A stretch of 64,000 nucleotides of DNA from the NCBI RefSeq assembly GCF_003018115.1, contig NZ_CP027457.1. One strand, written 5' to 3'. The notes beneath the pieces are model-generated. The model made no database searches, was not told where the DNA came from, and saw nothing but the letters and a program-made list of their open reading frames with translations. Origin of the DNA: Escherichia coli (GTDB taxonomy: Bacteria > Pseudomonadota > Gammaproteobacteria > Enterobacterales > Enterobacteriaceae). This document shows, piece after piece, positions 2,903-3,331 of the stretch. The position numbers and the translations under genes were made by a program. The number at the start of each line of letters is the position of its first letter. Position 1 is the stretch's first letter.

Positions 2903-3104
2903 GTTATTAATTTAGCCAAAGCTATGTTTAGTGTATTTTTAATAATCAGACATAGCTTAGGCTATATTACCTCTTGCCTTATTTGTTATTTATTTTAACG
3001 TTTCATTGATATATAAATCTAAATGAAAATCGTTATCAACAAAGCAATAAAATAATATATTCCAACAGTTGTTTTATATTCTCAAAATATGTTAAGGTTG
3101 CGCC

Positions 3105-3215
3105 CTCATTTGGGGAGTAGCCAATTTCCAGATTCCGGAAATGTACGTGTCAACATACTCGTTGCAAAACGTGGCACGTACGGACTGAAGACTTTCAGTC
3201 AGGCGAGACCATATG
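3105..3215 (+). promoter_or_regulatory. yybP-ykoY family Mn(II) riboswitch in the mntP leader
   Basis: Conserved riboswitch-like motifs GGGGAGUAGC and GUCAACAUAC in a long 5' leader upstream of the mntP ATG; boundaries approximate. Confidence 0.55.
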
Positions 3216-3331
3216 CACATCAATCGCTATGCCTGCATGAACGCGAAAACCCATCGCGGCTTGTTGTTCATGTATGCATGTTTGCTGGGGGCGATGATGT
3301 GTTTTATGGATACCCCGGTCAGGACGTTGTC

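Follow-up and report, generated by a model that had tools for sequence, protein, structure and literature searches.

The closest described system to the element considered here is the Mn2+ riboswitch of mntP (yebN) in Escherichia coli K-12 (RF00080), which is the same element at the same locus, a known yybP-ykoY Mn2+ riboswitch that is already well studied. The apo crystal structure of its aptamer is available as PDB 4Y1M, and Mn2+ has been reported to bind at a site formed by L1 and L3, docking the two legs of the aptamer and stabilising helix P1.1 (PMC12153347). The decision of the switch is taken co-transcriptionally, at about 205 nt, where without Mn2+ P1.1 and L1 are disrupted and the 3′ half of P1.1 finds a new partner in the expression platform (PMC12153347). 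Mn raises the expression of a translational reporter 7.5-fold (PMC9603457). Rho terminates transcription within the leader and the early coding region, an effect that Mn2+ relieves in part by restoring transcription-translation coupling (PMC11647493).

Another enterobacterial member of the family is the E. coli alx (PRE/SraF) leader, which likewise switches on translation of a Mn2+ exporter but lacks P2, giving a three-way junction, and has a different L3, an intrinsic terminator in P4 and a response to alkaline pH (PMC12153347). Unlike alx, the element described here possesses P2 and a four-way junction, and the alx leader itself was not found by Rfam scanning of the 64-kb window, the window being the whole stretch of 64,000 nt of DNA that was analysed. 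The Lactococcus lactis yoaB and Bacillus subtilis yybP/ykoY riboswitches share both aptamer architecture and the logic of the P1.1 switch with the present element. These, however, act by an intrinsic terminator/antiterminator, whereas the platform in the window consists of a long anti-P1.1 hairpin followed by the Shine-Dalgarno (SD) sequence, with termination by Rho.

The window is chromosomal DNA of E. coli with the gene order manYZ-yobD-mntP-rlmA; the neighbouring ORFs are manY, manZ, yobD (DUF986) and mntP, with rlmA lying convergent to the last. The region 2903-3400 is present at an identity of at least 95% in 5417 of 5426 complete E. coli genomes. The comparative set comprised the mntP loci of 80 species, each represented by a single genome; with two RefSeq E. 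coli records added, it makes 82 loci. The leader lies directly 5′ of mntP, a layout found in 79 of these 82, and GGGGAGUAG is located 164-223 nt upstream of the mntP ATG, again in 79/82; in two of the three loci without GGGGAGUAG the upstream sequence is too short. The features of the locus are given in Table 1.

Table 1. Features of the mntP leader and its surroundings, in positions of the window.
Feature	Position	Strand	Basis or remark
Spurious in-frame N-terminal extension	3089-3331	+	ATG 5′ of the transcription start, frame unconserved, no periodicity
mntP transcription start region	3102-3106	+	Literature positions, not mapped here
Mn2+ aptamer, yybP-ykoY class, four-way junction	3106-3215	+	RF00080, folding, covariation, published numbering
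P1.1	3107-3113 with 3209-3215	+	
Riboswitch motif UUGGGGAGUAGCC	3110-3122	+	
L1	3114-3119 / 3205-3208	+	
P1.2	3120-3122 with 3202-3204	+	
P2	3124-3129 with 3137-3142	+	
P3.1	3143-3152 with 3172-3181	+	
Riboswitch motif GUCAACAUACU	3148-3158	+	
L3 loop	3153-3159	+	
P3.2	3160-3163 with 3168-3171	+	
P4	3183-3189 with 3194-3200	+	
Riboswitch motif GGCGAGACC	3202-3210	+	
Anti-P1.1 platform hairpin	3209-3309	+	RNAalifold, covariation, agreement with literature
40-codon uORF, TGA overlapping the mntP ATG (ATGA)	3213-3335	+	Lineage-specific, most likely no gene
Conserved (A/G)CUGGGG block, apical platform hairpin	3284-3290	+	Nearly invariant in 48 species
Conserved CCCCGGU block directly 5′ of the SD	3313-3319	+	Conserved in all leaders
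mntP Shine-Dalgarno region CAGGAC	3320-3325	+	AGGA at 3321-3324, 7 nt before the ATG
mntP CDS, Mn2+ exporter, 188 aa, true start 3332	3332-3898	+	Pfam, RefSeq, K-12 annotation, tblastn, codon periodicity

The initial annotation had placed a yybP-ykoY riboswitch ahead of mntP and had proposed an Rfam/Infernal scan as the means of checking it. At the Rfam gathering threshold, RF00080 is absent from a scan of the whole 64-kb window, in which four families are found (RyeA, SdsR, a cspA-type leader and naRNA4). With permissive filters over 2900-3450, RF00080 ‘Manganese (yybP-ykoY)’ is matched on the plus strand at 3104-3200 with 40.1 bits and an E-value of 1.8e-9, against a curated gathering score of 45 bits for the family; taken over the full length of the window, by our own arithmetic, this local E-value becomes about 2e-7. 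The proposed check therefore yields a significant match, but one which lies below the gathering threshold and does not show in a default scan. All remaining Rfam matches in 2900-3450 have E-values of at least 0.03 and are far under the thresholds of their families, and RF00080 is the sole credible Rfam match for the leader. The L1 5′ strand UGGGGAGUAGC and the L3 loop GUCAACAUACU correspond exactly to the consensus of the model with high posterior probability. The alignment ends after P4 at 3200, and the 3′ strand GGCGAGACCAUAUG (3202-3215) has no counterpart in the model as printed. As the 3′ strand (3201-3215) is thus outside the cmscan alignment, the assignment to the family comes in part from the covariation analysis and from the literature.

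The shortfall in score is shared by relatives of the element. All 16 orthologous enterobacterial mntP leaders that were scanned match RF00080, with scores of 35.5-51.1 bits, seven of them reaching at least 45 bits and nine falling below. As the orthologues straddle the threshold, the shortfall is a trait of the enterobacterial subgroup relative to the printed model and not one of the window, and it should be mentioned that the gathering threshold is a curated score cut-off and no structural feature of the yybP-ykoY family. No riboswitch feature is listed at this locus in any of the three E. coli records examined in RefSeq, that of K-12 included, which is consistent with a sub-threshold score of 40 bits. 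Since the local E-value, the orthologues and the covariation all support the element, the negative default scan, which on its own would have resembled a refutation, is not accepted as one. With RF00080 matched at E=1.8e-9, covariation over 78 leaders and the published work on the K-12 leader, the riboswitch that had been suspected ahead of mntP is confirmed.

The families returned at the gathering threshold lie elsewhere in the window. The cspA thermoregulator family (Rfam) is matched at 4795-5255 on the minus strand with 136.9 bits, covering leader and coding region downstream of rlmA; the gene is of the cold-shock family, with a 69-aa CspA-like ORF at 4870-5079 whose orthologue is named cspE in one RefSeq record. 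There is also the known overlapping sRNA pair at 20743-20887, encoded on both strands (SraC/RyeA, 175 bits; SdsR/RyeB, 114 bits), and a REP-derived naRNA4 element at 42013-42088 on the minus strand (67 bits).

When the aptamer is folded in isolation (118 nt), its minimum-energy fold is the four-way junction (z=-3.4). Covariation was counted on an alignment of 78 distinct enterobacterial leaders, in which the two sides of the junction helices can pair in 96.6% of cells, compared with 25-44% in controls with the partners shifted by 1-3 columns. Compensatory change is present in 18 of the 36 junction pairs, and none of 500 shuffles reaches any of the five junction measures. By helix, the covarying pairs number seven of seven in P4 and three each in P1.1, P2 and P3.1, while L1, L3 and the GCGAGAC sequence are invariant throughout the 78 leaders. 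The four-way-junction aptamer is therefore strongly supported by covariation. The junction seen in the alignment is that from which two coaxial legs are predicted to be built, one stacking P1.1, P1.2 and P2 and the other P3.1, P3.2 and P4. The aptamer proper occupies approximately 3106-3215 and the expression platform 3216-3331. The span of about 230 nt given in the initial annotation for a leader with riboswitch motifs is correct to within a few bases, but the motifs themselves are confined to its first 110 nt or so.

Over the aptamer (about 110 nt) the window differs from K-12 at two positions, having A in place of G at 3123, in the P1.2-P2 junction, and another base at 3191, in the P4 loop. 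The two are identical in L1, L3, both strands of P1.1, the SD and the start codon. In the platform the window has one extra C, with a run of CCC at 3248-3250 where K-12 and most genomes have CC, together with a G/A difference at the hairpin tip and another G/A difference at 3326. No functional consequence is expected of the differences at the tip because other genera vary in this part of the hairpin or lack it. Binding of Mn2+ and activation by it are predicted for the allele of the window from the reports on the K-12 sequence.

Downstream of the aptamer, RNAalifold, applied to 48 platforms, recovers a single conserved helix, namely the anti-P1.1 helix, in which 3209-3226 (the P1.1 3′ strand and the bases following it) pairs with 3292-3309 (GCGAU-GAUGUGU-UUUAUGG). 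This helix is paired in 98.7-100% of cells against 34-47% in slid controls, and nine of its eleven inner pairs show compensatory change. It agrees with the re-pairing of the 3′ half of P1.1 reported for K-12 (PMC12153347), and the anti-P1.1 helix is the switch. The apical part of the hairpin (about 3227-3291) differs in length among genera: an insert of about 52 columns is missing from Enterobacter, Kosakonia and other genera, and the other Escherichia species carry a deletion of 13-14 nt. The apical region is dispensable. A terminator-like hairpin at 3242-3258 was considered as an intrinsic terminator and rejected: it corresponds to the platform hairpin's tip, and other Escherichia species lack it.

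With constrained folding of the 78 leaders, the OFF structure (anti-P1.1) is more stable than the ON structure (aptamer) by a mean of 9.5 kcal/mol, and is the more stable of the two in 77/78. Such an energetic preference for OFF suits a default-off switch which needs both its ligand and co-transcriptional trapping.

The founding paper, that of Dambach et al. from 2015, is reported by papers citing it to have proposed masking of the SD. In the comparative data the SD is kept as C(A/U)GGAC in most species, and no covarying SD-masking helix was found among the leaders. Constrained folding of the 78 leaders likewise gave no consistent signal, with the SD more accessible in ON than in OFF in 44/78 and the window around the ribosome binding site (RBS) in 42/78. 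Anti-SD stretches located by eye in the P2, P4 or L1 strands of Cedecea/Buttiauxella-type leaders were rejected, being partial complementarities which fail across genera. Co-transcriptional probing published in 2025 also saw no clear Mn-dependent change of reactivity at the mntP RBS (PMC12153347), and the absence of a masking helix matches this result.

A candidate for the missing connection is offered by the two conserved blocks which flank the 3′ strand of the anti-P1.1 helix, (A/G)CUGGGG and CCCCGGU. Across 48 species the two are complementary in 99.4% of cells, with two compensatory pairs, both of which derive from a single three-species clade. In the divergent clade GUUGGGG and CCCCAAC have changed together, and the SD region is different also (AACUGAGGC). 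The CCCCGGU block can pair either with the (A/G)CUGGGG block or with the UUGGGG of a freed L1 (3110-3115), and in OFF-constrained minimum-energy folds from several genera the GGGG of L1 does pair with it. The pairing of (A/G)CUGGGG with CCCCGGU is accordingly put forward as a lead, a candidate helix suggested by complementarity. In the ON state an ACUGGGG:CCCCGGU hairpin may present the SD, competing with the UUGGGG of L1 for the CCCC.

The start of the transcript can be placed from the literature. A 5′-UTR of 229 nt has been reported for mntP (PMC11647493), which when transferred from K-12 by alignment puts +1 at about 3102. In the published structural numbering A11 lies in L1, A48 opens L3 and the aptamer is complete at about nt 110 (PMC12153347); we infer that this numbering fits a +1 at 3106 and an aptamer ending near 3215. 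A scan with the sigma-70 consensus found nothing at the published start, its promoter-like sites being limited to 2939-2968 and 3033-3061, two sites where 1.9 are expected by chance.

Further upstream there are two palindromes resembling MntR operators, at 2909-2928 and 2949-2968, some 135-195 bp before the mntP transcription start. They were located by scanning for the MntR operator pattern AACATAGCNNNGGCTATGTT and with 2-3 mismatches gave four strand-matches against 0.05 expected. Together they make up a 20-nt inverted repeat and, as judged from this pattern, are probably MntR activator sites of mntP. Matches to miRNA families at 2900-2979 were discarded, being far below threshold and caused by this inverted repeat. 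A weakly supported Fur-box-like sequence, CTAAATGAAAATCGTTATC, is present at 3019-3037 on the plus strand with 14/19 positions agreeing with the consensus GATAATGATAATCATTATC; the window has seven such Fur-box-like matches against about 1.3 in shuffles. This site lies within an AT-rich inverted repeat (2990-3055) just 5′ of the mntP promoter.

Taken together with the published work, the leader (about 3102/3106-3331) is almost certainly an ON-switch that acts on translation and belongs to the yybP-ykoY class, with Rho-dependent termination as a further layer. In the proposed course of events the first 110 nt or so of the transcript would fold into the four-way junction, for which the covariation above is the evidence, with the L1 and L3 loops forming the metal site. 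Where Mn2+ is bound, a step for which the literature and not this analysis is the source, the two helical legs would dock and P1.1 would be held closed. Without Mn2+, once about 205 nt have been transcribed (the switching point being likewise a published value), strand 3292-3309 would invade and capture the 3′ strand of P1.1. This would give the longer and more stable anti-P1.1 hairpin, whose covariation and energetic advantage were determined here, and would free the 5′ strand of L1. The OFF fold would then lower initiation at the SD and ATG (3320-3334), and the untranslated leader and early coding region would be exposed to Rho, so that most transcripts are terminated. With Mn2+, initiation would be allowed, ribosomes would follow the polymerase and Rho would be partly evaded. 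Translational control and termination by Rho are taken in this scheme from the published experiments, and the lowering of initiation by the OFF fold is our own inference.

Two open reading frames run through this leader and bear on how it may be read. The extra C at 3248-3250 fuses frames in the window, producing both a mechanical ORF of 269 aa (3089-3898), which contains the ATG at 3332, and the 40-codon uORF; neither is present in K-12. The uORF is annotated by PGAP as a ‘hypothetical protein’ (WP_000547919.1) in window-like genomes only. The window-like allele is carried by roughly 14-29% of complete E. coli genomes, including O157:H7-type strains, a share estimated from rank in an evenly spaced listing, where the exact 105-nt allele was present at about 775 and gone by about 1550 of 5422.

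It could be imagined that the uORF is translated and that the riboswitch acts through it, the Mn2+-dependent opening and closing of P1.1 controlling access to the uORF AUG, but this is highly improbable. The AUG does lie in the switch helix, within the 3′ strand of P1.1, with AGG/GAG 5-10 nt 5′ of it, and the uORF stop overlaps the mntP start. The uORF ATG is the complement of the CAU in the P1.1 5′ strand, and the outer part of P1.1 is CAU...AUG in Escherichia and GUC...GAC in most genera, a compensatory change, so that the ATG is explained by the structure. The overlap of the TGA is automatic because MntP begins with Met-Asn (ATGAAY). That PGAP calls the uORF a protein in some genomes has to be set against its conservation, as even E. 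coli strains do not all maintain the frame: K-12, the strain of all the experiments, has a version of 27 codons with a stop 37 nt before the mntP ATG. In five other Escherichia species the uORF is frameshifted after about 11 codons by the 13-14-nt deletion, most of the 78 leaders have no uORF ATG, and most of its codons lie inside the apical insert which whole genera lack.

The further supposition, that termination at AUGA couples ribosomes onto mntP and so shields the leader from Rho, draws on the lack of a clear Mn-dependent change seen by probing at the mntP RBS and on analogous riboswitch-controlled uORFs outlined in PMC12810186 and PMC11260477. The uORFs of the M. tuberculosis Mbox and B12 riboswitches are described as starting in the switch region and ending at or near the regulated gene with Rho being involved, and also as conserved and translated; the uORF of the window, in contrast, is unconserved even within its species. 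In addition, Mn2+ closes P1.1, so that the uORF AUG would be hidden in the ON state, whereas coupling would require it to be accessible then, and this supposition is given as little chance as the first. No report of translation of the uORF was found in the literature search, which covered article text. On conservation, on the structural origin of its ATG and for want of any report, the uORF was rejected as a real gene or a regulatory uORF and is most likely not a gene. A narrower idea, very unlikely too, is that in the lineages with the extra C the uORF adds a second, lineage-specific layer of control to the riboswitch by termination-reinitiation coupling and shielding from Rho. If true, initiation with P1.1 open would shift the basal or Mn-induced levels of MntP relative to K-12.

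A scarcely credible alternative to the RNA switch is that MntP is made as a 269-aa protein from the ATG at 3089 and that the leader is coding sequence. The frame is indeed open for 81 codons 5′ of 3332, for which the chance is approximately (61/64)^81, or about 2%, per frame. This openness is peculiar to window-like E. coli, meaning here the window and two near-identical E. coli relatives, in which the in-frame open stretch before the mntP ATG is 92 codons (81 counted from ATG 3089); with a difference of one nucleotide it is 30 codons in K-12, and it is 26 in other Escherichia species, the median being 30 and the minimum 3. The ATG at 3089 also sits 11-17 nt 5′ of the published transcription start, which is thus downstream of it. 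Codon-position entropy over 79 species is 0.35/0.16/1.20 in the first 300 nt after 3332, whereas in the 33 nt before it the values are flat (0.85/0.95/0.94), and the region 5′ of 3332 covaries in the manner of an RNA. The match to Pfam Mntp (PF02659, E=1.4e-55) spans only residues 112-263 of the 269-aa form, equivalent to 31-182 in the 188-aa form, and the tblastn matches in 80 species begin without exception (80/80) at residue 1 of the shorter protein. RefSeq/PGAP and the curated K-12 record place the start of mntP at the equivalent of 3332. The initial annotation was therefore right in taking this internal ATG as the true start and the ORF from 3089 as an apparent extension; the extension is an artefact.

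Finally, that the leader is a degenerate or non-functional riboswitch relic, as its 40.1 bits under the gathering score of 45 might suggest, is almost certainly wrong, given orthologues that straddle the same threshold (7/16 pass), L1, L3 and 3′-strand cores that are invariant over 78 species, helices that covary, and a response to Mn2+ that has been shown experimentally for a K-12 sequence two aptamer positions away from that of the window.

The mntP leader is one of the best-characterised riboswitches of E. coli, with crystal structures, reporters, co-transcriptional probing and work on Rho to its name, and the identification of the switch in the window adds little that is new. Its by-products are an annotation caveat, a single C as the source of the spurious ORFs, and comparative evidence for the switch helix. 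The E. coli mntP riboswitch is missed by default Rfam or PGAP-style annotation (40 vs 45 bits), and a negative scan at the gathering threshold should not count as absence. A one-base length polymorphism at a dispensable hairpin tip suffices for some E. coli genomes to acquire a 269-aa ORF and, in their annotation, a ‘hypothetical protein’, and the case of the extra C is a clear example of ORF callers over-reading structured leaders. For the anti-P1.1 switch helix the comparative data provide phylogenetic support that is independent of the experiments in K-12, and, if true, the competition between the ACUGGGG:CCCCGGU pairing and L1 would explain how the state of the aptamer reaches the RBS.
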